The notes: a model not told the origin generated them from the letters alone. DNA of 64,000 nt from Candidatus Kaiserbacteria bacterium RIFCSPHIGHO2_01_FULL_53_29 (GCA_001781125.1 MFKT01000021.1:5178-69177); one strand, 5' to 3'. Positions 11,326 through 58,024 are shown, counted from the first letter of the stretch. Made by a program: numbers and translations.

Positions 11326-13602
11326 ATGTCCAATACTTTGAATAGAATTCGCACACGGTTCTCGATCTTGCTTGGAATGGCAATTCTTCTTGGAAGCTTC
11401 GTCTTTGCAGGAGCTTTTGTTCAAATAGCAGATGCCGAAGTGATATTTTGCGGGACAAGTGCTGGGGCGACATCTACGAGCGGGATCGGCAGGACAGGAA
11501 GATGTGCAGACGGTGCCCGCCTTATCGTGGGTACATCGCCAGGCGAGGGGCCGCAAGGTCCGCAGGGTGAGGCTGGTCCGATTGGTCCACAGGGTCCGCA
11601 GGGCGACACTGGTCCCGCGGGTAGTGATGGAGCGGACGGCGCGACAGGTCCCGAAGGCCCACAAGGTGATACTGGCGCTACAGGTCCGCAGGGTACGGCA
11701 GGCGCTGATGGTGAAGATGGTACTGATGGAGCGGACGGCGCCACAGGCCCGGCCGGTGCCGATGGGACAGATGGCATAGACGGAGCGCAAGGTCCGGAAG
11801 GCGACACGGGACCTCAAGGTCCACAAGGTGACGAGGGGCCACAAGGTGTCGATGGTCCGCAAGGTCTGACGGGCGCTGATGGCGCGACAGGTCCGGAGGG
11901 GCCGGCGGGTGAATCAGCAAATGTCGTCGTGACAGAGGAGGGAGAAGGCGCCAACTGTGAGGCAGGCGGACAGAAAGTCGAGACGAGTGTCGGCGACGAT
12001 TCGCCGCAGGTAAGTTACGTCTGTAACGGACTGGACGGCGACGATGGAACAGACGGGACGAACGGTACCAACGGGACCAATGGCTCCAACGCGCTCGTCG
12101 TCGTGACCGACGAGGCGGCTGGTGCGAACTGTGAATTTGGAGGGGAAAAAGTAGAGTCGGGCGTCGACGCGAACAACAATACTGTTTTGGACGAGCTTGA
12201 GGTTACTTCCACGAGCTACGTCTGCGACGGCGCACCGGGAGCAGAAGGCGCGCCGGGTACACCCGGTGATCCGGGCACACCTGGAGACCAAGGTCTCCCG
12301 GGTCCTCAAGGCGTTCAAGGTATCCAAGGTGAAGTTGGACCACAAGGTCCGCAGGGTGATGTTGGTCCGATGGGGCCGGCTGGCCCAACAGGTCCTCAAG
12401 GTCCAATCGGCTTGACTGGTGAGACAGGTCCCACAGGTCCTCAAGGCGCAGAGGGTCCGACGGGTCCCGCAGGTCCGGCCGGTCCAGCTGGCCCAGAAGG
12501 TCCTGCCGGCCCAACAGGTGCAACTGGTCCGGAAGGTCCAATCGGACCAGCGGGCCCCGCAGGAGCTGATGGAGAAGATGGTACCAACGGGCAAGACGGC
12601 GCGACGGGCCCAGCTGGTCCGACAGGTGCCGCTGGTGCTGATGGTGCTGTCGGTCCAGAAGGTCCAACTGGTCCAGAAGGTCCTACAGGTCCCACAGGCG
12701 CTGCTGGTGACGATGGTCTCGCTTGTTGGGACACAAATCAAAATGGCGTTGCTGATCCCGCAGAAGATTTGAACGGCGACGACGTCTTCGATGCACTCGA
12801 CTGTCAGGGTGCAATAGGTCCGCAAGGTGATACAGGGGCAACCGGGGCAACTGGTCCCACAGGTCCGACGGGTCCAACGGGAGCAACAGGTGACACAGGC
12901 CCAGCTGGTCCGACAGGTGCCGCTGGTGCTGATGGTGCCACCGGCCCGACAGGCGCTACGGGCGCAACGGGTCCGGAAGGTCCACAAGGCCCAATAGGTC
13001 TCACAGGACCTCAAGGTGAGACGGGTCCAGCCGGCGCACAAGGTGACCAAGGAATTCAGGGAGAAATTGGCCCGATGGGTCCGCAAGGTGCTCAGGGAGA
13101 GACAGGAGCAACAGGTGCGACCGGCGCTGATGGCGCAACTGGGGCGGCAGGTGCCACTGGCGCGCCAGGCCCACAAGGAGACACCGGTGCTACGGGAGCA
13201 ACCGGTGCGACTGGTGCACAAGGTCCGCAGGGTGACGTCGGTCCTCAGGGTCCGCAGGGTGATACAGGTCCTGCTGGAGCAACAGGAGCTACAGGTGCTA
13301 CGGGTGCGGCAGGTGCTGATGGAGCTGATGGCGTAAGTGGATGGGAGAGAATCGTTGGCACCGCCTCATCATTGGATGAGATCGCAACAAAAACTGTAGT
13401 CGCAAACTGCAGCGCGGGAAAAAAGGTTCTGGGCGGAGGTTACCGCATTGACGTCGGCGGAGGCAGTATCGCTGCGATTACCAGCATTGTCAGCTTCCCC
13501 GCAGATGACGACACATGGTCTGTAACTGCGAGCGAGGATGACGATGCTATCGTGGGTGACTGGTTGGTCCAAGCCTACGCACTCTGCGCAACAGTTCTCT
13601 AG
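11326..13602 (+). CDS. bacterial collagen-like triple-helix repeat protein with interspersed non-collagen modules and a C-terminal globular domain
   Basis: Signal-like N-terminus. Hundreds of GxY triplets ([25 protein letters not shown]...). Two inserted xVVVTxExxGANCExGGxKVE...SYVCxG modules. A Ca-binding-like [24 protein letters not shown] segment. AGGGAGG-like RBS 25 nt upstream. Confidence 0.8.
11530..13330. repeat. GGN-CCN coding repeats (collagen GxY) generating many spurious overlapping ORFs on both strands
   Basis: Periodic ggt/ggc-ccn-nnn repeats. ORF-track entries 11421..11807, 11914..13221, 12441..12734 and 12804..13004 are artefacts of this periodicity. Confidence 0.7.
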
Positions 13603-14032: not shown

Positions 14033-14062
14033 ACCTTAGAAGCGTCGCCTCTAAGGTAGGCC
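14033..14062. repeat. REP-like palindrome (REP1, left flank of RAYT1)
   Basis: ACCTTAGAAGCGTCGCCTCTAAGGTAGGCC hairpin. Shares the core GCGTCGCCTCTAAGGTAGG with the right flank. Confidence 0.55.
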
Positions 14063-14066
14063 TTAA

Positions 14067-14759
14067 TTACTTAAGATTTTCGATCATTGGTGATACCTCT
14101 CCGTAATAAGCCCGTGCATCGGAAAGCATTTTCTGCACTGGCACTTGATATGACCGGATTAGATCAACTTGTTCCGGGTCAAGGATCGCGTGCTCGGGCC
14201 GTACCATGCCAGAGTAGTCGGGGAAGCTTGCGTATGGATATGCCCGTATTTTTCTCTCTAGTCTCTGCATGTTTTTAACGAAACCGGATTTCCATTTAGG
14301 TTCGAATAATTCGCACGGATTCATGTGGACATAATCGACCGCACGATGCATATACCGATCGTCCGAGATGTGTTTCGATCTAAACGGCTTGATGAATAAA
14401 TTTCCCACACGGTCGTGCAGATTGTTGAAATAGAGTGCATAGCCCGTTCCGATCTTATGCATAAATCGAGAAATGCCGTGCTCCACAATTTCTTTCATCA
14501 ACAGGTGGATGTGGTTCGGCATCAGACAAAATGCACCAATGGCTACTAACGGTGACTTTCTTGGAAGAGTAAATGTCTCAGCGTATGAAACATGCTCGAA
14601 CAATGGGCGTTGAAGCGATTTTGTGTCGTTTGCCAAATAGAGGAGTTGCATGAACCGGCGATAGTGCGCGTCCTCCTCAAAGGTTATTCTTTTGTCGATG
14701 CCGCGATTGAAACAATGGAAATATTCATCTATTGCAAATGGAGTACGTCTGTAACTCAT
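14067..14759 (-). CDS. IS200-like Y1 HUH transposase, REP-associated tyrosine transposase (RAYT) type
   Basis: HuH motif LMPNHIHLLMKE. Catalytic-Tyr region YALYFNNLHDRVGNLFIKPFRSKHI. Paralogue of 34051..34728. Flanked by REP1 palindromes. Start taken at the internal ATG (MSYRRTPFAIDEYFHCF), which aligns with the paralogue; the track start codon at 14792 is TTG. Confidence 0.7.
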   Translation of the reverse strand: MSYRRTPFAIDEYFHCFNRGIDKRITFEEDAHYRRFMQLLYLANDTKSLQRPLFEHVSYAETFTLPRKSPLVAIGAFCLMPNHIHLLMKEIVEHGISRFMHKIGTGYALYFNNLHDRVGNLFIKPFRSKHISDDRYMHRAVDYVHMNPCELFEPKWKSGFVKNMQRLERKIRAYPYASFPDYSGMVRPEHAILDPEQVDLIRSYQVPVQKMLSDARAYYGEVSPMIENLK

Positions 14760-14797
14760 GAACTTATTGTAGCAACAAAATATGCTCGACAATAAGG

Positions 14798-14841
14798 TTA
14801 CCTTAGAGGCCTACCTTAGAGGCGTCGCCTCTAAGGTAGGT
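14798..14841. repeat. REP-like palindromes (REP1, right flank of RAYT1; two tandem units)
   Basis: TTACCTTAGAGGCCTACCTTAGAGGCGTCGCCTCTAAGGTAGG contains the perfect palindrome TACCTTAGAGGCGTCGCCTCTAAGGTA. Confidence 0.6.
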
Positions 14842-14883
14842 TCATGGAGGCCTACCGGTGCGGGAGGAAGGTACAATGGTCGA

Positions 14884-16227
14884 GTGAAATTATCAGACAT
14901 CACCGGAGTACGCATCAAAAAAGTGGCGGTGGTTGCGCAGGTCGTTGCGTCCTCCGCCGTCGCTGTGGGTGCTGCGGCTGTGGTGGCAGCGACGCGCGTA
15001 GCTTCTCCGCATAATAGCCACTCCATCGTCGAGCATGAGCTCGAGAAAGGGACGGAACTTTCGGTCATACGGCTCGTCGATCTCCTTATCGAGCGTGCGC
15101 AAGCGGCGCACGCATCAGATATCCATCTCGATCCGCGCGCAGGCTCGGTGGTAGTCAGGCTCCGTATCGACGGGATCCTGCAGGATGCTCACACGCTTCC
15201 CTCGAGCATTCACCATGAGGTTATCTCGCGCATCAAGATCCTTTGCGGCTTGCGCACCGACGAGCACCAAGCGGCACAAGACGGCCGTTTCCGCATCACG
15301 CTTGAGAGCGCTCTCTCGGTCGACGTGCGTGTTTCCATCGTGCCTACGTACCACGGAGAAAATGCTGTCTTGCGGCTTCTCTCTGATCAAGCAGAGGAAT
15401 TCACGCTCGAAACACTAGGGCTTACGCCAGAGAATCGCGCGAAGATCCTTCGCGCGATCAATAAGCCGCACGGCATGATCCTCGCGACCGGCCCGACCGG
15501 AAGCGGAAAGACGACGACACTCTACACGCTCGTTAAAATGCTCAACGTCCCCGCTGTTTCCATCATTACTGTTGAAGACCCCATCGAGTATTCGATATCA
15601 GGTATCAATCAAATACAGATCAACCCGCGCACGGGTCTCACATTCGCCAATGGCCTTCGGAGCATTCTAAGACAAGACCCCAACATCATCATGGTGGGTG
15701 AGATCCGGGATACCGAAACCGCCGGTCTTGCCGTCAACACGGCGCTTACCGGTCACCTTGTGCTCTCGACACTCCACACCAACGATGCGCCGACGACTCT
15801 ACCGCGTCTTCTCGACATGAAGATCGAACCATACCTCATCGCCTCGACCGTGAATATTGCCATCGGCCAGCGACTTGTCCGGCGCATCTGCAAACAGTGT
15901 AAGGAAGAACGCCCGATGACAAGTGCAGAAGCGGGGAGTCTTTCTGAGATCATGTCTGCGGAGCTTATCGAACTACCGGGCGTCTTTTACGCAGGTTCGG
16001 GCTGTGAGGCATGCGCGGGCACAGGCTATCGCGGGCGCGCGGGCATTCACGAAGTCATGGAGATCGACAATGATATTCGTGAGGCGATACTTCACAAAAC
16101 ATCTGCCCGCGAGATCCGTGATGTCGCCATACGCCAAGGCATGACGCCTCTTGTAGTTGATGGATTCCACAAGGCAGCACAGGGCCTGACCACGATCGAA
16201 GAGGTCTTGCGCACGCGCTATGAATAA
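14884..16227 (+). CDS. pilB: type IV pilus assembly ATPase PilB (GspE family)
   Basis: Walker A GPTGSGKTT; GspE core VIRLVDLLIERAQAAHASDIHLDP; C-terminal tetracysteine motif CKQC...GCEACAGTGYRGR. The track ORF start 14782 reads through REP1-R. Start reset to GTG 14884, which has a GGAGG 16 nt upstream; start uncertain. Confidence 0.8.
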   Translation: MKLSDITGVRIKKVAVVAQVVASSAVAVGAAAVVAATRVASPHNSHSIVEHELEKGTELSVIRLVDLLIERAQAAHASDIHLDPRAGSVVVRLRIDGILQDAHTLPSSIHHEVISRIKILCGLRTDEHQAAQDGRFRITLESALSVDVRVSIVPTYHGENAVLRLLSDQAEEFTLETLGLTPENRAKILRAINKPHGMILATGPTGSGKTTTLYTLVKMLNVPAVSIITVEDPIEYSISGINQIQINPRTGLTFANGLRSILRQDPNIIMVGEIRDTETAGLAVNTALTGHLVLSTLHTNDAPTTLPRLLDMKIEPYLIASTVNIAIGQRLVRRICKQCKEERPMTSAEAGSLSEIMSAELIELPGVFYAGSGCEACAGTGYRGRAGIHEVMEIDNDIREAILHKTSAREIRDVAIRQGMTPLVVDGFHKAAQGLTTIEEVLRTRYE

Positions 16228-17314
16228 ACCCTCCAATAAACTTTCAGTGCGAAAGAAACCTCTGCTTCTTCATTTTCCGCCACAGGAGCAAGCTCTGTTT
16301 GCCAAACGCCTCGGCATGATACTGCGTAGTGGCATGCCTATCATGGAGGGTCTGCAGATGCTCGGCGGCTCTGTGCGTTCGAGATCCGCGACCTACATGT
16401 ACGGACATCTGATCGAGCATGTCGAGAGTGGACAGCCGCTCTCGACGGGACTTGAGAAATTCAGGAAGATTTTTGGTGAGTTCTGCATCAACATCGTGCG
16501 GGTGGGGGAGAGCTCGGGCACGTTGCACGAGAACCTCGAGTATCTTGCCGAAGAGCTCAAGAAAAAAACGGCGCTGCGCAAAAAGGTCCTCGGCGCCTTG
16601 GTCTATCCCGCAATCATCGTTGTCGCGACGGTCGGGATCTCACTCGTTCTCACGGTGTATATCTTCCCGAAGATCACGCCCATCTTCCAAAGTTTCAAAG
16701 CACAGCTTCCGCTTACGACGCGCATGCTCATCGCGATATCGGATTTTCTCATCCACGATGGCTTGTGGCTTTTTATCGGAGTCGTGGCGACTGTAGTTTG
16801 CTGTCTTTTTCTTTTCCGCATTCCGCGCTTCCATCTTAGTGTCGACCACTTACTTCTGAAGCTCCCGCTTTTCGGGAAGCTTTCGCAGTACTACAATCTT
16901 GCCAATTGCTCCCGCACTCTCGGGCTTCTCCTCAAAAGCGATATGGGGATCGTGAGCGCACTCACTATCGTCACAAAAAGTTCGCGCAACCTTGCCTACA
17001 GGATCGCCCTTGCGAGTGTGACGAAAGAGGTGATGAAAGGGCAGAAAATCTCCACGCAGCTTACGAAAAATCCGAAACTGTTTCCACCGCTTTTTTCCCA
17101 GATGATCGAGGTCGGTGAACAGACGGGGAATCTCTCGAGCTCGCTCATGTATCTTTCCGATATGTACGAGGAGGAGATCAGCGACCTCACAAAGAATCTC
17201 ACGACGCTGATCGAACCGATTCTCATGCTCTTGATGGGCATCATTGTGGGCTTCATTGCGATATCGATCATTACGCCTATCTATGGCATCACCCAGCAAC
17301 TTACACCCCGCTAG
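16220..17314 (+). CDS. pilC: type IV pilus inner-membrane platform protein PilC (GspF family)
   Basis: GspF-family repeats with three TM segments. Overlaps pilB by 8 nt. Confidence 0.8.
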   Translation: MNKPSNKLSVRKKPLLLHFPPQEQALFAKRLGMILRSGMPIMEGLQMLGGSVRSRSATYMYGHLIEHVESGQPLSTGLEKFRKIFGEFCINIVRVGESSGTLHENLEYLAEELKKKTALRKKVLGALVYPAIIVVATVGISLVLTVYIFPKITPIFQSFKAQLPLTTRMLIAISDFLIHDGLWLFIGVVATVVCCLFLFRIPRFHLSVDHLLLKLPLFGKLSQYYNLANCSRTLGLLLKSDMGIVSALTIVTKSSRNLAYRIALASVTKEVMKGQKISTQLTKNPKLFPPLFSQMIEVGEQTGNLSSSLMYLSDMYEEEISDLTKNLTTLIEPILMLLMGIIVGFIAISIITPIYGITQQLTPR

Positions 17315-17819
17315 AGGCCTGCACGTAAAGTACCTGCGGCCTGCGCAGACAGGCTTCACCCTGCTTGAAGTCATGATCGTGATGGCGCTCGTCACCATTG
17401 TTGGGGCCTTCGGACTTTTGCTTGGTACGGACAGTTATCGCGGGTATTCTTTTCACTCGGATCACGACATTCTTGTTGCGGCTCTGCAGCATGCACGTTC
17501 GCAAGCCATCGGTAATGTATGTCTCGGGGAGGGTTGTACGCACGGGATGCCGCACGGCGTCTTTATTGATGCGGCTCATAATCGGTACGTCATCTTCCAA
17601 GGAACAAACTACGCGACGCGCGATGGGGAGGTCGACGCAGCGCTCGAGGCTGCGCCGGGAATGACCCGAAGCGGACTGTCGGAGATCGTATTCGCGCAGC
17701 TCTCCGGCAGTGCGAATTCGGCAGAAGCGCCGCCATGGGGAATTGTTCTCACTGATCCTACCGGTCGTACCTCAACGACCACTATCGAGAGCGAAGGGAG
17801 GATCTGGTGGACGCATTAA
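17283..17819 (+). CDS. prepilin-type N-terminal cleavage/methylation domain protein (minor pilin / pseudopilin-like)
   Basis: Class III signal ...RPAQTG|FTLLEVMIVMALVTIVGAF. Start ATG 17283 is uncertain and gives a long leader. Confidence 0.55.
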   Translation: MASPSNLHPARGLHVKYLRPAQTGFTLLEVMIVMALVTIVGAFGLLLGTDSYRGYSFHSDHDILVAALQHARSQAIGNVCLGEGCTHGMPHGVFIDAAHNRYVIFQGTNYATRDGEVDAALEAAPGMTRSGLSEIVFAQLSGSANSAEAPPWGIVLTDPTGRTSTTTIESEGRIWWTH

Positions 17820-17821
17820 CT

Positions 17822-19324
17822 ATGCAGCGCGGTTTCTCAACGCTCGAATTGTTGATAGCGATGGCGCTCATGGTTGTGACGCTCTCGGCCGTTATCGAGG
17901 TTTCGTTCGGCAATCAAGATATGCTCGTAAGTGGTGAAATGAATGCCGAGGCGCTGCGTATGGCCCAGACATTGCTGGAAGAGGAACAGCAACTCGCACG
18001 CAAAGATTTTAAGCTCGTGAACCCGATTGCGGTGACTACGAACGGCCCCTACGACACGTCAGTTACAGTCGAGCCATGGCCGGGAGATCCGTACACAACA
18101 AAGCGCGTGACCGCACATGTGAATTGGAGCGACGCACGTCATGTCACCAGAGGCGTCGCGCTCACCACACTCGTTAGCAATTTTGTGAGTGCCTCCGGCG
18201 CAGACACGTGCATCTCGGCGCTTACCGGAGACTGGAGCGCGCCGCAAAAGACCGACTACCAACTTGCTTCCGGTAGTCTTCTTCCCTCCGGTTTCCTTGG
18301 AAACTACCCGTTATCCGACATCGATGCGTCTCGGGGCACATTATATGTGGCGGTCGCAAGCACGAGTGCCGCCGCCCGTGCCAACTTTTTCGTGTTCGAT
18401 GTGAATCCAAGCGGAATGCCGGTCTATGTGAACAGCACAGACAATAACCCATCGAGTATCGACGGCATCAATGCGGTTCAGATCGCAGGTATCCAAGCCT
18501 TTGTCGCGAACGCTCACGATGCAAACTTCAAGACGTGTAAACCGGGAGCAAACTGTTCGCAACTCCAGATATTCAATCTCAATACGTTGTCGACACCCCC
18601 CGTGAATTTCTTGATACCCACCTCAACGCCACCGTTCGTACTCGGAAATATGACGAGCAACAATCAGGCAGTGGGCAAGAGCCTCTTTTACAAAGATGGC
18701 TACGTGTATCTTGGGCTCACGAAAACCGCAAGCGGTCCGGAATTCAATATCATCGATGTGCACGATCCTGCAACTCCGGCGTGGGTCGGGAGTTTCTCAG
18801 TCGGCGCGAGTATCAATGCGATCTACGTGAGAAATAATTACGCGTATCTTGCGACAGACGACAGCAGCAGGGAATTGATAATTCTCGATGTCGGAAATCC
18901 CGCGAGTCCGATTTTGGCACTCGGCACGGTTATTAATCCCGGGGGGTTAGGATTTGGCAGGAGTTTGTATGGAGTGGGCGACACGTTGTATCTCGGACGG
19001 ACATTCGCAAACGGGGCTAAGGAATTGTACCTTTTGGATGTTGCAGACCCGAGCACGAATATGTCGGCGCCGCTTGGATCGCTTGTGATCGGAAGCAGTG
19101 TCAACGCACTGGTCGTACGCGACTATCTTGCGTTTCTTGTGACCTCGACCACCAAACGGATCCACATACTCAATATTTCAAATCCGGCAAGCATCACCCC
19201 ATTTGCTCCGGCGCTATCGCTTCCGGGCACAGGTGCCACGCTTGATTGCGAGCAGAATGTTCTCTATGCGGGCTCAAACGGCACGGGCACGGGCTTTCTA
19301 TCAGTCATCACGTCTGGGCCATGA
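17822..19324 (+). CDS. prepilin N-terminal domain fused to an LVIVD-repeat beta-propeller (candidate pilus tip adhesin)
   Basis: MQRG|FSTLELLIAMALMVV prepilin signal. Four or more LVIVD-like repeats (YAYLATDDSSRELIILDVGNPASP; YLAFLVTSTTKRIHILNISNPAS; LYLGRTFANGAKELYLLDVADPS; YVYLGLTKTASGPEFNIIDVHDPATP). Confidence 0.6.
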   Translation: MQRGFSTLELLIAMALMVVTLSAVIEVSFGNQDMLVSGEMNAEALRMAQTLLEEEQQLARKDFKLVNPIAVTTNGPYDTSVTVEPWPGDPYTTKRVTAHVNWSDARHVTRGVALTTLVSNFVSASGADTCISALTGDWSAPQKTDYQLASGSLLPSGFLGNYPLSDIDASRGTLYVAVASTSAAARANFFVFDVNPSGMPVYVNSTDNNPSSIDGINAVQIAGIQAFVANAHDANFKTCKPGANCSQLQIFNLNTLSTPPVNFLIPTSTPPFVLGNMTSNNQAVGKSLFYKDGYVYLGLTKTASGPEFNIIDVHDPATPAWVGSFSVGASINAIYVRNNYAYLATDDSSRELIILDVGNPASPILALGTVINPGGLGFGRSLYGVGDTLYLGRTFANGAKELYLLDVADPSTNMSAPLGSLVIGSSVNALVVRDYLAFLVTSTTKRIHILNISNPASITPFAPALSLPGTGATLDCEQNVLYAGSNGTGTGFLSVITSGP

Positions 19325-19824
19325 AGCGACGAACGACAAGCTGCAAAGGATTCACCATGATAGAGACGCTCGTCTATCTTGCGCTTTACGCGATTATTAT
19401 GACCGGGTTACTTTCGGCAGTCTACAGTCTGATTGAATCGAGCGTGCATAACCAAACGGTCGCCATGGTGGAAGAGGAGGGAAATTTTCTCGCAGGAAAA
19501 ATAGAGTGGGCTCTTTCGAATGCGCGCGAGATTCTGGCGCCTTCCTCGAGTGGCTCGACGCTCTCCGTTACGACATTCGATGGCTCACCGATCACGATTG
19601 GCCTCACGGGTGGCGACATGCGGATACAAGAAGCATCGAATCCCGCACACATTCTGAACAACACAAATGTTTCAATAACCAATCTCTCGTTTACTCACGC
19701 CCGTGCTTCTTCCGACGGGATCAATCCCGAAAGTATTGAGTCTTCATTTACCATTTTTGCGACTACATCGAGCGGTCGTTTTTTATCCCGCGCGTTCTCG
19801 ACGCTTAAATATCTACGAAAATGA
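19321..19824 (+). CDS. prepilin-type pseudopilin
   Basis: MKRRTTSCKG|FTMIETLVYLALYAIIMTGLL. ATGA overlap with the upstream gene. Confidence 0.55.
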   Translation: MKRRTTSCKGFTMIETLVYLALYAIIMTGLLSAVYSLIESSVHNQTVAMVEEEGNFLAGKIEWALSNAREILAPSSSGSTLSVTTFDGSPITIGLTGGDMRIQEASNPAHILNNTNVSITNLSFTHARASSDGINPESIESSFTIFATTSSGRFLSRAFSTLKYLRK

Positions 19825-20294
19825 AACGCAACGCACGCGGAATGGAGAAGGAGAGGGGATTTGTGGCGCTTATCTCCACGCTGATTATTTCAGCCATCCT
19901 GCTCGGACTTGTGTTTACGGCTGGCGCGGCCAGTTTTTACGCGCGATTTGATTCGTTGGGCATAGAAAACAAGCGTGTGAGTTTGGGTTTGGCGGAGTCC
20001 TGCATTGAAATTGCGCTGCTCGCTCTTTCCACGTCAACCGCTCCCAGTGCATTGAGTCCAACGAACCAGATCGTTCCAGTCGGTATCGATCCACAGGGGA
20101 ACCCGACAACATGCGTCATCGAAAGCGTCACGCACGCGGGTGGAGTCGCGACGATCAAAGCGCACGCATCGTTCAGAGGCACTTTCAGCGCAGTCGTCGT
20201 AAGCGCAACTGTTGCAGATCCTACCGTTGCACCAGCGTCATTTCCCGCACCCCCGAACATTGATATCCAGTCTTGGACTGAAAAGCCGCAGTGA
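19821..20294 (+). CDS. prepilin-like protein (PilX-like)
   Basis: MEKERG|FVALISTLIISAILLGLVFTAGA. ATGA overlap with the upstream gene. Confidence 0.5.
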   Translation: MKRNARGMEKERGFVALISTLIISAILLGLVFTAGAASFYARFDSLGIENKRVSLGLAESCIEIALLALSTSTAPSALSPTNQIVPVGIDPQGNPTTCVIESVTHAGGVATIKAHASFRGTFSAVVVSATVADPTVAPASFPAPPNIDIQSWTEKPQ

Positions 20295-20389
20295 ACCAGC
20301 TGCGCAGAAGCTTCATTTGAGATGTCTGCGGTTTTATCAGCTCGTGTGGAAGGGAGGATGCCTCCTGTCATAATATTATTTTATTAACA

Positions 20390-20436
20390 CCCATATCCCT
20401 CAATCCTTGACGGCCGTCTATAATGGGGGGATATGG
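20390..20436. promoter_or_regulatory. nested palindrome overlapping the regulator start codon (candidate operator)
   Basis: CCCATATCCC-tcaatcctt-GACGGCCGTC-tataat-GGGGGGATATGGG; the ATG 20433 is embedded in the right arm. Confidence 0.4.
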
Positions 20437-21011
20437 GAAAGCTTGAGAATGAAGCCCGGTATGAGCGCCGTAAGGGGTATCTTCAACAGGCACTTCTCGC
20501 TGCCGTTGCAATTCCGGGACTGCTGCTCGTAGCCACCGCAGCGCCCAATGTTTTACAGCTTATCGAAAGACTTCCCGGCAACAAATACAAATTCAACTAT
20601 CGAATGAAGTCGGTCGCTTCCCGCCTGGCGCAACGCAAGCTCGTACGCTTCGTCGAACGAAACGGCAGAAAATATATGGAGATCACGGAAGCGGGCAGAC
20701 AAGTGCTTGAAATGGAACAACAAAAACGAACATTCGAGAAGCGTTCGCGCAGGCGGTGGGATAAACGATGGCGCATGATCATCTTTGACATACCGGAGAA
20801 ATATCGAGCGACCAGGAGTCGACTGCGAGTCATGTTGAGATCACTCGGTTTCGTGCAGCTGCAAGGAAGCGTTTGGGTATATCCCCATGATTGTGAGGAA
20901 GTGATCGCGCTCTTGAAAAGTGAACTCCGCGTGGGAGCATCCGTGCTCTACACGATAGTAGAGAAAATCGAGAACGATGCTGCTCTCAAAGATCATTTTG
21001 GTCTTCGTTGA
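20433..21011 (+). CDS. PaaX-like transcriptional regulator (N-terminal wHTH, PaaX_C-like C-terminus)
   Basis: RLAQRKLVRFVERNGRKYMEITEAGRQVL wing-helix. C-terminal WDKRWRMIIFDIPEKYRATRSRLRVMLRSLGFVQLQGSVWVYP resembles the PaaX/Cas2-fold C domain. Confidence 0.45.
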   Translation: MGKLENEARYERRKGYLQQALLAAVAIPGLLLVATAAPNVLQLIERLPGNKYKFNYRMKSVASRLAQRKLVRFVERNGRKYMEITEAGRQVLEMEQQKRTFEKRSRRRWDKRWRMIIFDIPEKYRATRSRLRVMLRSLGFVQLQGSVWVYPHDCEEVIALLKSELRVGASVLYTIVEKIENDAALKDHFGLR

Positions 21012-21013
21012 GT

Positions 21014-21058
21014 ATCCCCTTATTATGAACGGCCGTCAAAAATCGGGGGATGTTTTTT
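21014..21058. promoter_or_regulatory. second copy of the nested palindrome, followed by a T-run (operator and/or terminator)
   Basis: ATCCCC-ttattatg-AACGGCCGTC-aaaaatc-GGGGGAT-gttttttt. Same ACGGCCGT core and ATCCCC/GGGGAT outer arms as 20390-20436. About 140 bp upstream of the major pilin gene. Confidence 0.4.
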
Positions 21059-21195
21059 TATGAACCCGGAATAGTGGAAATGCCACGGCACTCTCAAGTT
21101 GTTCTTGAGATTCGAATTTCAACTAAGATGCTCCCGCGAGTTATGCACAGCCGGACGTTGCTGTTTATTCACGGAGATTTTATTATCACGCGAAT

Positions 21196-21684
21196 ATGGA
21201 ATCAATTAAAAAAGTATCGAAGACCTGCCTACCGGCAGGCAGGGGTTTTACATTAATAGAAATCTTAGTGGTCATCGGTATCATCGCCGTTTTGGCAGCA
21301 ATCGTTATTATCGCCATCAATCCGGCTCGCCAGTTCGCGCAGGCACGTAACACGCAGCGAACGAGCAATGTCAGCACGATCTTGAATGCGGTCGGTCAAA
21401 ATATTGCGGATAATAAAGGTGTCTTTACCTGCGCCAGCAACACACTTGCGCTTGGTACAACGGCAGTCCACATTGGCACGAGTGCAACTTTGGCAGATTT
21501 CTCCTGTCTCGTGCCGACATACATTCCTTCAGCCATCCCGACTGACCCCAATGGTGGAACTGCGGCCGACACAGACTACACGGTGGCGGTTGATGCCAAT
21601 GGCCGCTTTACGGTATGCGCTCCGAATTCGGTAACCGAACATGAGATATCGAATCCTGGGCCTACGATCTGTCTCACGCGCTAA
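21196..21684 (+). CDS. type IV pilin (major pilin candidate)
   Basis: ...PAGRG|FTLIEILVVIGIIAVLAAIVIIAINP. Confidence 0.65.
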   Translation: MESIKKVSKTCLPAGRGFTLIEILVVIGIIAVLAAIVIIAINPARQFAQARNTQRTSNVSTILNAVGQNIADNKGVFTCASNTLALGTTAVHIGTSATLADFSCLVPTYIPSAIPTDPNGGTAADTDYTVAVDANGRFTVCAPNSVTEHEISNPGPTICLTR

Positions 21685-33381: not shown

Positions 33382-34014
33382 ATGTCCATTCTTACCAAAA
33401 AGGAAATTCTCGCGCGGGTAAAGAAGGGGAACATTGTCTTTCATCCGGGTCTCGATAGATTCCAATTGCAGACGCATGCAGTAGACCTCCGACTTGGCTT
33501 TACATTCCTCATCCCGAAATCCTGGAAAATGACGCCGAAGGGCAGGCAAGCGCTTTCGATAGACCCTCTCCGTGATCATGGACCCGAATACTTCGATGTG
33601 ATAGAGCTCGAACAAGGCCAGTCCTTCGACCTTCTGCCGCAAGAGTATGTCCTCGTCTCCACATTCGAGACGATAAAAGTGCCCAACGACCTTATGGCTG
33701 TCTTGTATCCGCGTTCATCAGTCAATCGCAAAGGGCTTTCGGTAGACTTGACCGGTATCATTGATAGCGGCTACGAGGGCCCGCTCACACTTCCCATTCG
33801 CAACAACACACGCTCACAGACCATCCAGCTCCATCCGGGCGAGCGATTTTGCCAGCTTGTTTTCGAAGAACTCAAACACAAAGTAGAACCCAAGAAATCC
33901 CGCTGGCATCAAAAGGACGTGGTGGATAAGGGCAAAAAAGAAAAAGCGGCCGAAATGAAACTCGTCTTTAGCGGCGACCTCAAAAAATTAAAAACCGACT
34001 TCTCTGCTCACTAA
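33382..34014 (+). CDS. dcd: dCTP deaminase (dUTPase-fold)
   Basis: MSILTKKEILARVKKGNIVFHPGLD...VDLRLG dCTP deaminase N-terminus. Confidence 0.8.
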   Translation: MSILTKKEILARVKKGNIVFHPGLDRFQLQTHAVDLRLGFTFLIPKSWKMTPKGRQALSIDPLRDHGPEYFDVIELEQGQSFDLLPQEYVLVSTFETIKVPNDLMAVLYPRSSVNRKGLSVDLTGIIDSGYEGPLTLPIRNNTRSQTIQLHPGERFCQLVFEELKHKVEPKKSRWHQKDVVDKGKKEKAAEMKLVFSGDLKKLKTDFSAH

Positions 34015-34036
34015 CGATGAGATGACATCTCATCGT
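34014..34036. repeat. REP-like palindrome (REP2, left flank of RAYT2)
   Basis: Perfect palindrome ACGATGAGATG-A-CATCTCATCGT starting at the dcd stop codon. Confidence 0.55.
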
Positions 34037-34050
34037 GGTACACTTGGGAC

Positions 34051-34728
34051 ATGGCAAATCGGCCTCCTTTTGAGTTAGGCGAGTGGTATCACTGTTTCAG
34101 CCGCGGTGTCGAGAAAAGAAAGGTATTTGAGAACGAGCTAGACGCAAATCGTTTTCTCATGCTTCTGTACTTAGCGAATGGAACAAAGCCCATACAGATT
34201 TTTAATACATACAAACCGGAACTTTCAAAAGCACTCAAAACTGATCGGGGAACTCCGATTGTTGCGGTTAGTGCGTATTGTCTGATGCCCAATCATTTTC
34301 ATTTGCTATTAAAAGAAGTCGTTGAGGGCGGCATTTCATCGTTTATGAGGAAGTTAGGAATTGCATACACAATGTATTTTAACGAAAAGAATGAACGTGT
34401 AGGGAATCTGTTTGTAAAACCCTTCCGGTCGCGGCGGATTGGTACCGATCGTTATTTCCAACGCGTTCTTCAATACATTCACTGCAATCCAGCTGAATTA
34501 TACGAGCCAGCTTGGAAATCTGGATCAGTGCGAAATATTCGCACACTGGAGAAGAAACTTGTTGATTATCCCTACTCAAGCCTCCGAAATTATTCATTGC
34601 CAAAGAGCAATAACAGGATTCTTTCAAAAGATGGATTTGATGTTGCCGATCATCCTTCGGCCGCCAGAATGATTGAAGATGCTCGATCCTATTATGCGGA
34701 CATTGCAGAAGACAGATTCGAGCGCTAG
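34051..34728 (+). CDS. IS200-like Y1 HUH transposase, RAYT type (paralogue of 14067..14759)
   Basis: LMPNHFHLLLKE HuH motif; YTMYFNEKNERVGNLFVKPFRSRRI Tyr region. Flanked by REP2 palindromes. Confidence 0.7.
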   Translation: MANRPPFELGEWYHCFSRGVEKRKVFENELDANRFLMLLYLANGTKPIQIFNTYKPELSKALKTDRGTPIVAVSAYCLMPNHFHLLLKEVVEGGISSFMRKLGIAYTMYFNEKNERVGNLFVKPFRSRRIGTDRYFQRVLQYIHCNPAELYEPAWKSGSVRNIRTLEKKLVDYPYSSLRNYSLPKSNNRILSKDGFDVADHPSAARMIEDARSYYADIAEDRFER

Positions 34729-34729
34729 T

Positions 34730-34754
34730 CACGATGAGATAACATCTCATCGTG
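34730..34754. repeat. REP-like palindrome (REP2, right flank of RAYT2)
   Basis: CACGATGAGAT-AA-CATCTCATCGTG. Confidence 0.55.
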
Positions 34755-47288: not shown

Positions 47289-47681
47289 CTAGCCTGTAGC
47301 TCGCTCCTGGTTTTTATCTTCAGAACCCTCGTACGCTAGTGCAACGAGATACATATACCGGCGAGGATACCTGCTCGGCAAGTCGAGGAAGTCTTCTAGA
47401 AGCGCAGATAACTTCTCTTTATCTTTGGGTATTCGGAATTCGACCCCTTTTGCCACCGCGGGGTCATTTTCGTATTTGGAAATAAGACCGCTTGCAATCT
47501 CGTCTGGAGACAATCTCTCAGTTTTTTCTACCGCAACTGGTCCTCCTATTGAAATTGCGTTGTCGACTGCATCAAGGTTGTCAAGGATTCCCTCGGCATT
47601 CAGATCCGCTATCTCCCCAGGAAGGCGTTTTCCCAACTTGGGAAACCTCAGAACGTCCCCTGTTCCTCCTTCTCGGCTCAT
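47289..47681 (-). CDS. hypothetical protein
   Basis: 130-aa ORF with no recognisable motif; possibly not expressed. Confidence 0.25.
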   Translation of the reverse strand: MSREGGTGDVLRFPKLGKRLPGEIADLNAEGILDNLDAVDNAISIGGPVAVEKTERLSPDEIASGLISKYENDPAVAKGVEFRIPKDKEKLSALLEDFLDLPSRYPRRYMYLVALAYEGSEDKNQERATG

Positions 47682-47696
47682 ACTGCAAGTATACGC

Positions 47697-47762
47697 TATT
47701 GTTTGAGTCCCAATCCTGTGCGAATAAGGTACCAGTTGACTGCTGTGAGAACCGCTATTCCA
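47697..47762 (-). pseudogene. diverged duplicate of the 3' end of the ABC-2 permease gene (fragment)
   Basis: Minus-strand translation ...IAVLTAVNWYLIRTGLGLKQ* matches the C-terminus of the permease at 48728..49510 (...LVAINWYLIRTGLGLKQ*). Shares the 19-mer CGAATAAGGTACCAGTTGA with 48751-48769. Confidence 0.45.
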
Positions 47763-47955: not shown

Positions 47956-48660
47956 ATGATCAGCTTTATCAAACGTCAGAGTGCACGTATTGGAGCTACT
48001 GTTACATTGCTCTTTGCCGTTCTCGTTCTCGGCGTGCAGCATGCCCATGCGCAATATCAGTACGGCGCTACCCAACCGGCGAGTGGCGTTATTACCTCAA
48101 CTATGGATCCGGGTGACTCTGGAGGGAACGTGACCGCGCTCCAGATATTTCTCGCCAAGGACCCAGCCATCTATCCGGAAGGATCGGTGACGGGTTTCTA
48201 CGGGGCCCCTACCATGGTTGCTGTGCAGCGCTTCCAATGCAGACATGAAATTATCTGCGAGGGAGATGTTGCTTCGACTGGTTATGGCCGGGTAGGTCCT
48301 GTGACGCTTAGGGTGATTCAATCACTCCAGGGGTCAGTGTCGCTTCCGTTGCCCTTTACGCGTGCTGATGTATTTGCACCCGTCATGAGTACCGCGACAA
48401 TAACAGTGGCCTCAACGTCTGCGACCTTCCACTGGACGACGAATGAACCCGCAATGAGCGCGGTGCTCTATGGAAGTGCGTGGCCCTTCTACATCGGGAC
48501 AGCGCCGAGTGCGTGGGACAGAACAACAATGGATCTCTCTGCCAATGTAGTGGTGACGGGTCTCACGCCCAACACCACGTACCACTATGTCTTGCAATCT
48601 CTCGACGCCTCGGGGAATGTGCAATGGGACGTTGGAAGATCGTTTACCACCTTGCGGTGA
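47956..48660 (+). CDS. secreted protein with peptidoglycan-binding-like domain and FN3-like domain
   Basis: Signal peptide. GNVTALQIFLAKDP...GFYGAPTMVAVQRFQ. TFHWTTNEPAMSAVLYG...TGLTPNTTYHYVLQSLDASGN. Confidence 0.6.
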   Translation: MISFIKRQSARIGATVTLLFAVLVLGVQHAHAQYQYGATQPASGVITSTMDPGDSGGNVTALQIFLAKDPAIYPEGSVTGFYGAPTMVAVQRFQCRHEIICEGDVASTGYGRVGPVTLRVIQSLQGSVSLPLPFTRADVFAPVMSTATITVASTSATFHWTTNEPAMSAVLYGSAWPFYIGTAPSAWDRTTMDLSANVVVTGLTPNTTYHYVLQSLDASGNVQWDVGRSFTTLR

Positions 48661-48671
48661 GCGACCGCATC

Positions 48672-48714
48672 ACTCAATGCAAAATCCCGCCTCGAGCGGC
48701 ATTTTGCATTGAGT
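48672..48714. terminator. long perfect hairpin between convergent genes (bidirectional terminator candidate; no T-tract)
   Basis: ACTCAATGCAAAAT-cccgcctcgagcggc-ATTTTGCATTGAGT (14-bp stem). Confidence 0.45.
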
Positions 48715-48727
48715 CAACAAACGGTGT

Positions 48728-49510
48728 TCATTGTTTTAATCCTAGACCGGTACGAATAAGGTACCAGTTGATGGCGACGAGAGCTGCGATCATACCTACC
48801 AAGACCGCCAGCGATATCCAGAGAGAGATGTCGGCAATGCCTAAGAAGCCATAGCGGAAGCCGTTGACGAGGTAGAAAATCGGATTCACGAAGGTGGCGT
48901 ATTGTGCGATTTGCGGGAGCGAATGCACAGAATAAAAGACGCCGCCGAGATATACCAGAGGTGTCAAGACAAACGTGGGTACGAGATTGATGCCGTCGAG
49001 GGATTTTGCATACACGCCGTTGACCAAACCTGCGAGGGAGAATACGAGTGCGGTCATAACCGCGAAGAGGAAGATGATCGCGGAGTTGAAAAGCGAGATA
49101 TGGAGGCCGGTAAAAAAGATGGAAATGAGAAGCACGAGCGTACCAACCAATACGCCGCGCACGATGCCTCCCGATATGAATCCGGCGATGAGCAGCCACG
49201 GCGGAGTGGGCGAGACGAGTATCTCGTCGATGCCGCGGAAGAAGAATTTGGATTGGAAGAAGGTGAATGAGGTGTTGGAATAGGCGTTGGTCACGATAGC
49301 GAGCATCACGAGCCCTGGTACCACGAACGACATGTAGTCGACCCCCTGCATATCACCGATGCGCGAGCCGAGCACGGTGCCGAAAATAAGGAAATAGAGG
49401 CATGAGGTGATGACGCTCGGCAGGAAGGTCTGCACCCAAATGCGGAACATGCGCACCACATCCTTGCGGAGCATGGTGTAAAAAGAGATCCATTTCTGAT
49501 ACGAGTTCAT
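48728..49510 (-). CDS. ABC-2 type transporter permease
   Basis: Six TM segments; ABC-2 family. Start taken at MNSYQKWISFY, 4 nt downstream of the ATPase stop. Confidence 0.7.
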   Translation of the reverse strand: MNSYQKWISFYTMLRKDVVRMFRIWVQTFLPSVITSCLYFLIFGTVLGSRIGDMQGVDYMSFVVPGLVMLAIVTNAYSNTSFTFFQSKFFFRGIDEILVSPTPPWLLIAGFISGGIVRGVLVGTLVLLISIFFTGLHISLFNSAIIFLFAVMTALVFSLAGLVNGVYAKSLDGINLVPTFVLTPLVYLGGVFYSVHSLPQIAQYATFVNPIFYLVNGFRYGFLGIADISLWISLAVLVGMIAALVAINWYLIRTGLGLKQ

Positions 49511-56400: not shown

Positions 56401-56658
56401 ATGGTTAGAACAGCGAATCCCGCATTATTAAAGCCGCTCAACCTTTCTGCCGAGCTCGAGGCGGTCGTGGGCAAGGGGCCCATGTCGCGAGGTCAGGTAG
56501 TGAAGCAGATTTGGGTATATATCAAGAAGCACGATCTCCAGAATCCAGCCAACAAGCGCAACATTCTGGCTGACGACAAGCTGAAGCCACTCTTTGGCGG
56601 AAAAGGTGAAGTCACGATGTTCGAGATGACGAAACTCGTCTCTGGACACATGAAGTAA
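56401..56658 (+). CDS. SWIB/MDM2-domain protein
   Basis: SAELEAVVGKGPMSRGQVVKQIWVYIKKHDLQNPANKRNILADDKLKPLFG...MFEMTKLVSGHM. Confidence 0.7.
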   Translation: MVRTANPALLKPLNLSAELEAVVGKGPMSRGQVVKQIWVYIKKHDLQNPANKRNILADDKLKPLFGGKGEVTMFEMTKLVSGHMK

Positions 56659-56680
56659 GGAAAAAAGAGAGCAAAGAATG

Positions 56681-56707
56681 AGGCCGCCCCGACGGGGCGG
56701 CCTTTAT
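56681..56707 (+). terminator. rho-independent terminator after the SWIB gene
   Basis: AGGCCGCCCC-gac-GGGGCGGCCT followed by TTAT. Confidence 0.6.
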
Positions 56708-56722
56708 GGTAGACTAGTATGC

Positions 56723-56956
56723 ATGACGAAGCTGTTTGAAGAGGGAATCGAGGCGGTGAAGAATCTGCCGCGTGCTCGGCAAGACGTCGCAGGGGAATTT
56801 TTGCTTGCGATTGCGGAACAGAACGCCCGGTCTTATAGCCTCAGCGAAGAGCAGGTAAAGGAGGTCAAGCGCCGACAGCAAGCTTTCAAGAGGGGCAAAG
56901 AGCCCTACGTAAGTGACAAAGAAATGGCCAGACTTTGGAAAAAGTTGGGTCTATGA
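56723..56956 (+). CDS. type II antitoxin (ParD/Phd-like, putative)
   Basis: 78-aa helical protein immediately upstream of, and overlapping by 4 nt, a RelE/ParE toxin. Confidence 0.45.
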   Translation: MTKLFEEGIEAVKNLPRARQDVAGEFLLAIAEQNARSYSLSEEQVKEVKRRQQAFKRGKEPYVSDKEMARLWKKLGL

Positions 56957-57234
56957 GAGTGAGGTATCGGCGGCGTGCCAAGCTCGATGTCGAGAACCTG
57001 TACCGCTACATTGGTGAGCGAGATCAGCACGCAGCGACTTCGGTTGCCGCGCGCATTCGTTTTGCCGTCAGTCGTCTTGGAGCGTGGCCATATATGGGAC
57101 ACGTGGGAAGCGCGGCAAAAACATACGAGTGGATCGTCGCTGGACTACCCTTTGTAATTGTCTACGAAGTTGATGAAGTGGCGAACGAAATCGCGATTAT
57201 CGCTGTCTTCCATTGCGCGCAAGATCGTCCATAA
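56953..57234 (+). CDS. type II toxin, RelE/ParE family
   Basis: RelE/ParE fold motifs: C-terminal WIVAGLPFVIVYEVDEVANEIAIIAVFHCAQDRP. Confidence 0.6.
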   Translation: MRVRYRRRAKLDVENLYRYIGERDQHAATSVAARIRFAVSRLGAWPYMGHVGSAAKTYEWIVAGLPFVIVYEVDEVANEIAIIAVFHCAQDRP

Positions 57235-57238
57235 ACGT

Positions 57239-57288
57239 GAGGTCATCATGTTTGAAATGACCAAGCCGTCTCGGCGCACATGAAGTAA
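57239..57288 (+). repeat. diverged duplicate of the SWIB gene 3' end
   Basis: GAGGTCATCATGTTTGAAATGACCAAGCCGTCTCGGCGCACATGAAGTAA versus 56608-56658 GAAGTCACGATGTTCGAGATGACGAAACTCGTCTCTGGACACATGAAGTAA. Roughly 75% identity by eye; not computed. Confidence 0.5.
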
Positions 57289-57309
57289 ACGTTTCCAAAG
57301 AGTTTTCCA

Positions 57310-57339
57310 GCCGCGGCCCCGTAAGGGGCCGCGGCTTTT
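57310..57339 (+). terminator. rho-independent terminator
   Basis: GCCGCGGCCCC-gtaa-GGGGCCGCGGC-TTTT. Confidence 0.7.
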
Positions 57340-57435
57340 CAACAGAGCTCTTGATTAGTTGGAACTTTCGCCCAATAATGGCGAGACGGTCTTTAACTTA
57401 ATTGACGACGATACAGTGTCTCTTGGAGGTCAAGG

Positions 57436-57825
57436 ATGAAACGGGCAATAAGTCTGCTTATGCGGTCATTTCCGCACTTGTTCGACGGTAGCGGTGTGTC
57501 GCAGTATCAGCCGCCCACCGTTGTTCTACGCGTACGGGAAGTGTGCCGAGTTAGGGCCTATTACGCGATCGGTTGTTGGGATATGGTGTCTGTAACCACC
57601 TTGCCTCCATGTGTTGAAGTGGAGGCCGCTTATCGAGCCCTCTTGGGAACTCGTTGGTGCGGACCAATCCTCTCGTACGATCGTCTGCACGATCGGCTTA
57701 TCGACCGACTCGGGGAATACAAACACGCCAAACGGTTTGAAGGACTTCGCGCGGCGCGAGAATTAATCCGCTGGGGCCTCAACATTAGAAACGGAGTGCC
57801 GTCGGATTACCAGCTGCCGCAATGA
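57436..57825 (+). CDS. hypothetical protein
   Basis: 129-aa ORF followed by a terminator; no recognisable motifs. Confidence 0.3.
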   Translation: MKRAISLLMRSFPHLFDGSGVSQYQPPTVVLRVREVCRVRAYYAIGCWDMVSVTTLPPCVEVEAAYRALLGTRWCGPILSYDRLHDRLIDRLGEYKHAKRFEGLRAARELIRWGLNIRNGVPSDYQLPQ

Positions 57826-57851
57826 CGCGGCAATGTTCAAAAGAGAGTGAC

Positions 57852-57891
57852 GAGGCGCCGCGGTTCGGATACCACGGCGCCTCTTGTTTTT
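57852..57891 (+). terminator. rho-independent terminator
   Basis: GAGGCGCCG-14nt-CGGCGCCTC-TTGTTTTT. Confidence 0.55.
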
Positions 57892-58024
57892 CTTTATGTA
57901 ACGAAGCCCTAGACTTCTTCACAAGGATGACGTCTAAGCTTGTCCACACGCTTGACAAGCTGCCAGAAAGGATAATTATGCTAGTAATTAGGATAATTAT
58001 TAATGTAATTAATCTAGCGCGCGC

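Follow-up and report, generated by a model that had tools for sequence, protein, structure and literature searches.

Two copies of a SWIB gene end flank a ParE-family toxin-antitoxin pair in a Kaiserbacteria genome

We analysed a stretch of 64,000 nucleotides from Candidatus Kaiserbacteria bacterium RIFCSPHIGHO2_01_FULL_53_29 (GCA_001781125.1, MFKT01000021.1:5178-69177), hereafter called the window, in which a two-gene toxin-antitoxin (TA) pair stands behind a gene for a SWIB-domain protein and the 3' end of the SWIB gene occurs a second time on the far side of the pair. The gene order around it is CTP-transferase-like, DUF378, SWIB, TA pair, orf129, orf68, glnA and amt. The features of the locus, counted from the first letter of the window, are as follows:

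56401 to 56658, plus strand: SWIB-domain gene, 85 aa, intact (Pfam SWIB, 4.3e-30)
56602 to 56658, plus strand: copy 1, the functional SWIB 3' end (...GEVTMFEMTKLVSGHMK, then stop), by local alignment to 57233-57288
56659 to 56722, plus strand: imported spacer, predicted terminator 1 (T1) and putative extended -10 box, by folding; without homologue in the fetched loci
56723 to 56956, plus strand: antitoxin gene, 77 aa, homologous to the 78-aa partner that always precedes related toxins
56953 to 57234, plus strand: ParE-family toxin gene, 93 aa (Pfam ParE_toxin)
57233 to 57288, plus strand: copy 2, the displaced, frameshifted remnant of the SWIB 3' end, by alignment to copy 1
57289 to 57340, plus strand: resident spacer and predicted terminator 2 (T2), which would now end the TA operon, by alignment to relatives and folding

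The SWIB protein ends in ...EVTMFEMTKLVSGHMK before its stop codon, and its orthologues in 80 Parcubacteria/Kaiserbacteria loci are 71-95% identical. Local alignment of copy 1 and copy 2 gave 45 matches in 57 columns with one gap and a score of 52, as compared with a mean of 14.5 (sd 2.1) and a maximum of 26 for 2000 shuffled controls. A second SWIB end downstream of the gene was found in none of the 80 related loci, where the best score was 28. The duplication of the gene end is real and highly significant, and it occurs only in this strain. The two ends are 78% identical when the last 54 nt are aligned by codons (42/54), slightly above the by-eye value of about 75% given in the initial annotation, and they share an identical block of only 12 nt. 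That annotation had also recognised the second gene end as such, with bounds of 57239-57288; the alignment moves its start to 57233, which lies at or overlaps the toxin stop codon (57232-57234). The ending ...VIMFEMTKPSRRT with a TGA stop that had been read for the distal copy results from a frameshift: copy 2 carries a 1-nt deletion (AAACTCGTC in copy 1 versus AAGC-CGTC in copy 2), past which the DNA similarity continues to the original stop codon (CACATGAAGTAA, 57277-57288) and there ceases, the spacers and hairpins beyond being unalignable.

With regard to the differences between the two copies, third codon positions account for 8 of the 11 substitutions (P=0.009 if decay were uniform), a bias that is expected for orthologous gene ends diverged under selection and not for a local duplicate in decay. 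Polarisation with five relatives indicated that the left part of copy 1 is near-identical to the relatives and that of copy 2 is divergent. On the right, copy 2 (TCG GCG...) agrees with the relatives, most of which have TCG GCN, whereas copy 1 has the unusual TCT GGA (Ser-Gly); moreover, the tail of copy 2, CGTCTCGGCGCACATGAAGTAA, is identical to that of L011. This split, with a native-looking left part in copy 1 and a native-looking right part in copy 2, resembles the product of a reciprocal crossover at the shared CGTCTC. The relatives whose SWIB protein ends in VSGHMK have no downstream sequence in common with copy 1.

The hairpin of T1 (56680-56704) has an 11-bp stem of -23.7 kcal/mol with a z-score of -4.45 and is followed by UUUAU, and that of T2 (57309-57336) has a 12-bp stem of -31.2 kcal/mol followed by UUUUC; both z-scores lie below -4.4. 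The U tracts are short, and both fell under the T-run threshold of the consensus terminator scan on the plus strand. Gene end and terminator had initially been taken as a unit duplicated on both sides of the cassette, with terminators of similar design. Both hairpins do exist, but their likeness is only that of generic intrinsic terminators, and because T1, T2 and the spacers that precede them are not homologous, the unit was not duplicated; only the gene end occurs twice.

The comparison with relatives tells the two sides of the cassette apart. Most of copy 2 together with its spacer and T2 (57239-57339) is 81% identical to the SWIB end, spacer and terminator of the related locus L014 (4208-4312), and for T2 and the spacer upstream of it the identity to what stands behind SWIB in L014, L012, L112 and L113 is 81-85%. 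The last three of these share the spacer GGGTTTCCA.GGTGTTTTCCAGCC after SWIB, and the T2 orthologue of L014 has another stem sequence that folds equally well (-34.4 kcal/mol). No homologue of T1 or of the spacer before it was found in any fetched locus, and the relatives have no counterpart of 56659-56722 or of the TA genes. Since the relatives have orthologues of T2, of the spacer before it and of the tail of copy 2, but nothing that corresponds to T1 or the TA pair, the original gene end is the distal one and the original terminator is T2, and the sequence directly downstream of SWIB came with the cassette. Judged in this way, T1 is foreign and arrived together with the TA pair, while T2 is resident; the resident SWIB end was displaced and frameshifted, the incoming DNA having provided a substitute end, its own terminator and the TA pair. 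T2 also varies within the population: in scaffold L008 a 30-nt deletion (57303-57332) takes away the left hairpin arm, and in L005 three bases are substituted (57300, 57302 and 57317). The variants may be genuine polymorphism, or they may stem from difficulties of the assembly with a perfect hairpin.

The toxin gene starts within the antitoxin stop (ATGA), and all homologous TA loci share this layout, with 78 aa encoded by the first gene and about 95 aa by the second. The toxin belongs to the ParE family, as judged by its match to Pfam PF05016 ParE_toxin (E 8e-12, 46 bits against a cut-off of 23, positions 1-88 of 89), and the initial description of a two-gene TA cassette inserted behind SWIB is borne out by this match, by the ATGA overlap and by syntenic relatives without the pair. 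Its score against NCBIfam RelE_StbE was 17.5 bits, below the cut-off of 27.9. A profile of 15 members of the toxin family matched the E. coli ParE2 structures 5CW7 and 5CZF at 1e-4, and tblastn gave 35-39% identity to plasmid YacB (35-37%) and other RelE/ParE toxins; phmmer searches of the PDB with the single toxin and antitoxin produced nothing significant. The antitoxin scored 18.7 bits (E 0.0019) with Pfam Unstab_antitox PF09720, which is sub-threshold (cut-off 23.3), as are the 14-20 bits of five antitoxin homologues, and it had no match in NCBIfam or the PDB. Its start is sometimes called at 56678, inside T1, but the family alignment favours the 77-aa form. A putative extended -10 box, TGgTAGACT (56707-56715), lies just upstream of the antitoxin ATG, and in homologous cassettes elsewhere a -10-like box likewise stands 6-7 nt upstream of this codon. 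TGgTAGACT would serve as promoter, and the antitoxin start would be leaderless. The stretch conserved among the homologous cassettes extends from this box to the toxin motif AQDR, beyond which the C-terminal tails diverge. From these features we infer a two-gene type II TA module with a ParE-family toxin and predicted TA activity.

The closest relatives of the toxin are 60-71% identical, annotated as ParE1/3/4, and located on high-GC soil-bacterial contigs, each behind a 78-aa partner with a 4-nt overlap and among unrelated neighbours. This occurrence of homologous pairs in unrelated contexts of other bacteria indicates that the pair behaves as a mobile islet. The G+C content of the TA pair in the window (53%) is like that of its genome (54%), whereas the related pairs have 58-61% in genomes of 64-68%, and the copy is therefore not a fresh import from those high-GC bacteria. 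A metagenome scan with the toxin gave no relatives, and a scan of viral contigs gave a single match of 33%.

The toxin itself was found on 12 contigs, 99.6-100% identical to the window and all from Rifle groundwater assemblies. L014 has the same gene order (CTP-transferase, DUF378, SWIB, glnA, amt) without the TA pair, and L112, L113 and L012 are likewise syntenic with no TA genes behind SWIB; all four show the native SWIB end with T2, so that the comparison with genomes lacking the pair, to which the initial annotation had pointed, comes out in favour of an insertion. The SWIB site is uninterrupted, i.e. empty, in L014, L112 and L113. The empty allele was also searched for by an exact-pattern scan in which the native SWIB end is joined to the native spacer. 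In addition, the independent Logan contigs L006 and L009 both begin exactly at 56613 (56643 minus 30). Logan contigs are assembled with k=31, and a branch of the graph would accordingly lie directly behind CGTCTC at 56643, where copy 1 first departs from the native-type end. The variant contigs show no SNP at 56612, and the shared start is a weak hint that an allele without the cassette may coexist.

A scan of 779 genes of the related loci for other gene-end remnants matched only L083, which is not a remnant, indicating that the process is rare. The match (L083, 65-2536) was rejected because it consists of three full-length tandem paralogues (277, 244 and 287 aa) with near-identical 3' parts, e.g. 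96% over 227 nt.

The stretch between T2 and the glnA promoter (57340-57972) is wholly different among the relatives. In the window it holds orf129 and orf68, neither with a Pfam match, in L014 (4313-4994) an unrelated 145-aa open reading frame (ORF), and in L112 yet another sequence. These differences show that the SWIB-glnA interval is a variable spot in general and not just the site of the TA insertion.

The architecture of the locus had been likened to that at 47.7-48.8 kb of the window, and the likeness holds: there the end of a permease gene is duplicated, and a relative (L115) bears the intervening cargo natively. The second locus contains the following features:

48728 to 49510, minus strand: ABC-2 permease gene, 260 aa, orthologues 82-90% identical; its last 66 nt (48728-48793) are copy A
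47956 to 48660, plus strand: cargo gene for a secreted 234-aa protein (PG_binding_1 / purple-acid-phosphatase-N, FN3-like; Pfam matches)
47696 to 47761, minus strand: remnant B, the apparently displaced ABC-2 permease 3' end (GIAVLTAVNWYLIRTGLGLKQ, then stop), by local alignment
47289 to 47681, minus strand: 130-aa ORF without homologues or Pfam match, bounded by remnant B and the gene for adenylosuccinate lyase (ASL)

Copy A and remnant B aligned with a score of 49 (shuffle maximum 28), and their differing codons comprise 9 synonymous and 4 non-synonymous changes. The last 14 residues of remnant B are those of the functional permease end, with synonymous changes only, for which we roughly estimate a chance of P ~0.002 if one copy were free to decay; this speaks against a decayed local duplicate. 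A two-way hairpin follows the cargo (48674-48712; -20.7 kcal/mol on one strand and -24.9 kcal/mol on the other). The permease and ASL genes of L108 and L110 abut tail-to-tail, leaving an empty junction, and in L109 an unrelated 128-aa ORF lies between them. L115 has a 57%-identical homologue of the cargo between ASL and permease, with the shared hairpin and no remnant, and its permease end is identical to copy A at 58/66 positions and to remnant B at 43/66. No remnant of the ASL end was found upstream of the cargo. The other orphan ORF at the same junction in L109 suggests repeated insertions at this tail-to-tail junction, and the 130-aa ORF, for which the public annotation of this strain has no gene, is probably an earlier insertion at the same spot. 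On the simplest reading of these sequences, the ancestor of the window would have had the order permease, orf130, ASL; DNA of an L115-like lineage would then have brought a permease end, terminator and cargo, whereby the old permease end was displaced.

A related cassette with flanking repeats was found in an unrelated soil bacterium (L095/L107; GCA_040960175.1, JBFOMP010000083.1), the only positive among 10 homologous TA loci examined for such repeats. Here the homologous TA pair stands 46 nt behind a tRNA-Leu(TAA) gene, and the tRNA-end repeats occupy 3619-3721 and 4265-4362 of L095. The second copy comprises a perfect 64 nt from the anticodon stem to the tRNA 3' end, preceded on its left by a degenerate tRNA-like stretch, and the toxin ORF is fused to the repeat in such a way that its stop codon is the anticodon TAA. 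Neither an integrase within 10 kb of this cassette nor a third repeat was found.

The locus is a clean but ordinary scar of horizontal insertion, and we consider it somewhat more probable than even that the TA islet was gained by one-ended homologous recombination which used the SWIB end. A compact type II islet, with its own -10 promoter, the 77-aa antitoxin and the 93-aa ParE-family toxin, would have entered the variable SWIB-glnA spot on DNA that bore, in addition to the TA pair, T1 and the SWIB 3' end of another lineage, probably taken up from a related Kaiserbacterium. This SWIB end would have been the homologous segment for recombination, with a linear fragment entering by homology-facilitated illegitimate recombination (HFIR) or a circular one by a Campbell-type single crossover. 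As a result, SWIB would now end in wholly or partly imported sequence and be terminated by T1, and the resident last 56 nt of the gene would have been pushed with T2 downstream of the toxin, where the displaced fragment has decayed, as by the frameshift, and T2 would have come to terminate the TA operon. We favour this route, which we infer, because the copies diverge as orthologues do, because L115 has an arrangement of the donor type, and because recombinases are lacking: in the approximately 55 scanned ORFs of the window we found none of the tyrosine or serine type, and two IS200-like Y1 genes are the only transposases. The window also contains a type IV pilus or competence-like cluster (14782-21684) that encodes a PilB-type ATPase (T2SSE, 9e-118), PilC (T2SSF), several pseudopilins bearing the motif for N-terminal methylation and a protein with a PaaX_M (Cas2-like) domain. 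Such a pilus set would be compatible with DNA uptake by transformation.

Several observations weigh against recombination at the SWIB end. A breakpoint test of the maximum chi-square type for a crossover at CGTCTC was not significant (permutation P=0.17). The exact-pattern scan for the empty allele returned only three 85%-identical relatives and no sister strain, i.e. no near-identical strain with an empty site that would mark the left boundary of the imported DNA. Nor did the searches find a donor with T1 or with the SWIB-TA arrangement, and the closest relatives of the toxin are just 71% identical and do not belong to the Candidate Phyla Radiation (CPR). No more than about 3 nt separate the joint at copy 2 from the toxin stop, and HFIR leaves it unexplained why the remnant starts right at this stop, here as in L095. 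Finally, the repeats of L095 have the form of a pair of attachment (att) sites, with a degenerate left part, a perfect right part and a start at the anticodon stem, which is the best argument for readings that involve an integrase or a Campbell-type crossover.

The main competitor, which we nevertheless hold to be rather unlikely, is a site-specific integrative element that inserted at the SWIB 3' end with an attP site that bore a substitute gene end, in the manner of islands that target tRNA genes or trmE, and then lost everything but the TA pair, leaving an attL-TA-attR structure like that of a cis-mobilisable element (CIME). Such elements by definition keep attL and attR after loss of their integration genes (PMC5704250), and Belot et al. 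propose that islands are streamlined to TA-only islets (PMC13617665). The strongest likeness comes from L095/L107, where the repeats start with the anticodon stem at its 5' arm and extend as far as the tRNA 3' end, and the right copy joins a degenerate left part to the perfect 64 nt. The att sites of tRNA-targeting tyrosine integrases usually begin at this same arm. Deletion up to attR would moreover give what is seen at both loci, a repeat that abuts or is fused with the toxin end. Against this stand the lack of an integrase among the scanned ORFs of the window and within 10 kb of L095, the lack of a third repeat there, and the low similarity of the copies in the window, which have just a 12-nt identical block and 78% identity overall. 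In addition, the cargo of the second locus is native at the same place in L115 without repeats, and this fits exchange between relatives better than an island. We also considered, tentatively and with still less expectation that it is right, that the TA family may travel as a minimal element free of recombinases, consisting of the TA pair and a captured piece of a conserved host gene, namely tRNA-Leu in one phylum and the SWIB 3' end in Kaiserbacteria. A circle with one repeat copy would be set free when the flanking repeats recombine; after uptake, homologous recombination of the host would reinsert it behind the same conserved gene of a new genome, and the addictive TA pair would shield the insert from loss. 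The direct joining of the pseudo-target to the toxin end, common to the SWIB locus and L095, fits this idea, and so does the L095 pseudo-target with its degenerate left and perfect right part.

Two further explanations are very improbable in our judgement. The SWIB end might have been duplicated locally at insertion, by a staggered cut, target-site duplication or replication slippage, and the distal copy have decayed afterwards. The direct repeats that flank the insert and the similar repeat lengths in the three cases (57, ~64 and 66 nt) would agree with this, but the third-position bias (P=0.009) and the purely synonymous differences in the last 14 permease codons (rough P ~0.002) would not, and the sequence past copy 1 is not a copy of that past copy 2. 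No transposase is known to make duplications of 57-66 bp. The other is that the TA pair and both copies are ancestral to the clade and that the relatives with empty sites lost the pair by recombination between the repeats. One intact gene end would be left once direct repeats had recombined in this way, so that the empty sites alone do not give the direction of change. The cassette is, however, confined to one strain (12 contigs, 99.6-100% identical) and the TA pair is absent from all of the more than 80 related SWIB loci, five of which share the native downstream sequence; with the cassette in one strain only, many independent and precise losses would have to be assumed, and we give this history hardly any credence.

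With regard to known systems, type II TA pairs that stand alone between core genes are called TA islets in the work of Hayes & Van Melderen (2011) as cited in PMC13617665. The pair behind SWIB resembles them in being a two-gene pair without mobility genes, with conserved flanks, at a high-turnover spot and missing in close relatives. A ParE/RelE operon between the copies of a duplicated 24-bp palindrome, single at the empty site, is described by Belot et al. (2026; PMC13617665); unlike a palindrome or a res-like site, the repeat in the window is a diverged 57-nt 3' end of a protein gene in a CPR host. The gene-end scar has the pattern of the displacement of 3' ends (C-termini) in Rhs, contact-dependent inhibition (CDI) and type VI secretion system (T6SS) effector-immunity arrays, for which HFIR is the model (Jackson et al. 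2009; Kirchberger et al. 2017, PMC5361080). There, too, recombination via the conserved upstream part brings a new 3' end with cargo and leaves the old end orphaned downstream, and successive events pile up at one spot, as may be the case at the permease/ASL junction. In those arrays, however, the displaced ends encode variable toxin domains and the exchange diversifies the gene, whereas the SWIB end is conserved and a mere anchor for cargo unrelated to the gene. Elements that target gene 3' ends, CIMEs and tycheposons also duplicate their att sites (PMC5704250; bioRxiv 10.1101/2020.12.28.424599), so that the insert lies between direct repeats of the target end and the gene stays intact through its proximal copy; older events are marked by remnants of partial targets. 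L095 fits this form closely; the SWIB locus differs in its repeats of 78% identity and in a size of about 0.6 kb in all, and no integrase was found here or near L095. The TA pair itself is like ParE2-PaaA2 (PDB 5CW7) and plasmid YacAB in having a PF05016 toxin with a small antitoxin upstream, but the similarity is distant only, the antitoxin is of the Unstab_antitox type at a sub-threshold score, and the activity is predicted.

What is new is the instance, i.e. the CPR host, the SWIB anchor, the preservation of both junctions and the presence of two such loci within 64 kb. How TA pairs without mobility genes enter chromosomes is still under discussion (Belot et al. 2026, PMC13617665), and because both islet junctions are preserved here and the relatives have an empty site, resident and imported sequence can be distinguished. 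Together with the second locus, the L095 case points to recombination anchored at gene ends as one route by which small cargo reaches streamlined CPR genomes. The locus leaves the knowledge of TA systems and of recombination unchanged; its use is that of a worked example and of a search pattern, namely a gene-end remnant downstream of a small insert.

The two IS200-like Y1 (HUH) transposase genes of the window are paralogous and of the REP-associated (RAYT) type. The first occupies 14067-14792 of the minus strand (Pfam Y1_Tnp 1e-5; region 14033-14840) and the second 34051-34728 of the plus strand (Pfam Y1_Tnp 2.5e-7; region 34014-34754). Near-identical palindromes, ACCTTAGAGGCGTCGCCTCTAAGGTAGG and ACGATGAGATGACATCTCATCGTG, flank each of them, and the second gene lies between those for dCTP deaminase and dihydrofolate reductase in a thyA-dcd-folA cluster. 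Mobilisation of the cassette by these genes and their palindromes was rejected, T2 being resident and conserved and both T1 and T2 unrelated to the RAYT palindromes. A 758-aa ORF at 11326-13602 consists mostly of collagen-like Gly-X-Y triplets, with a 9-nt periodicity and the repeat families D1-D3.

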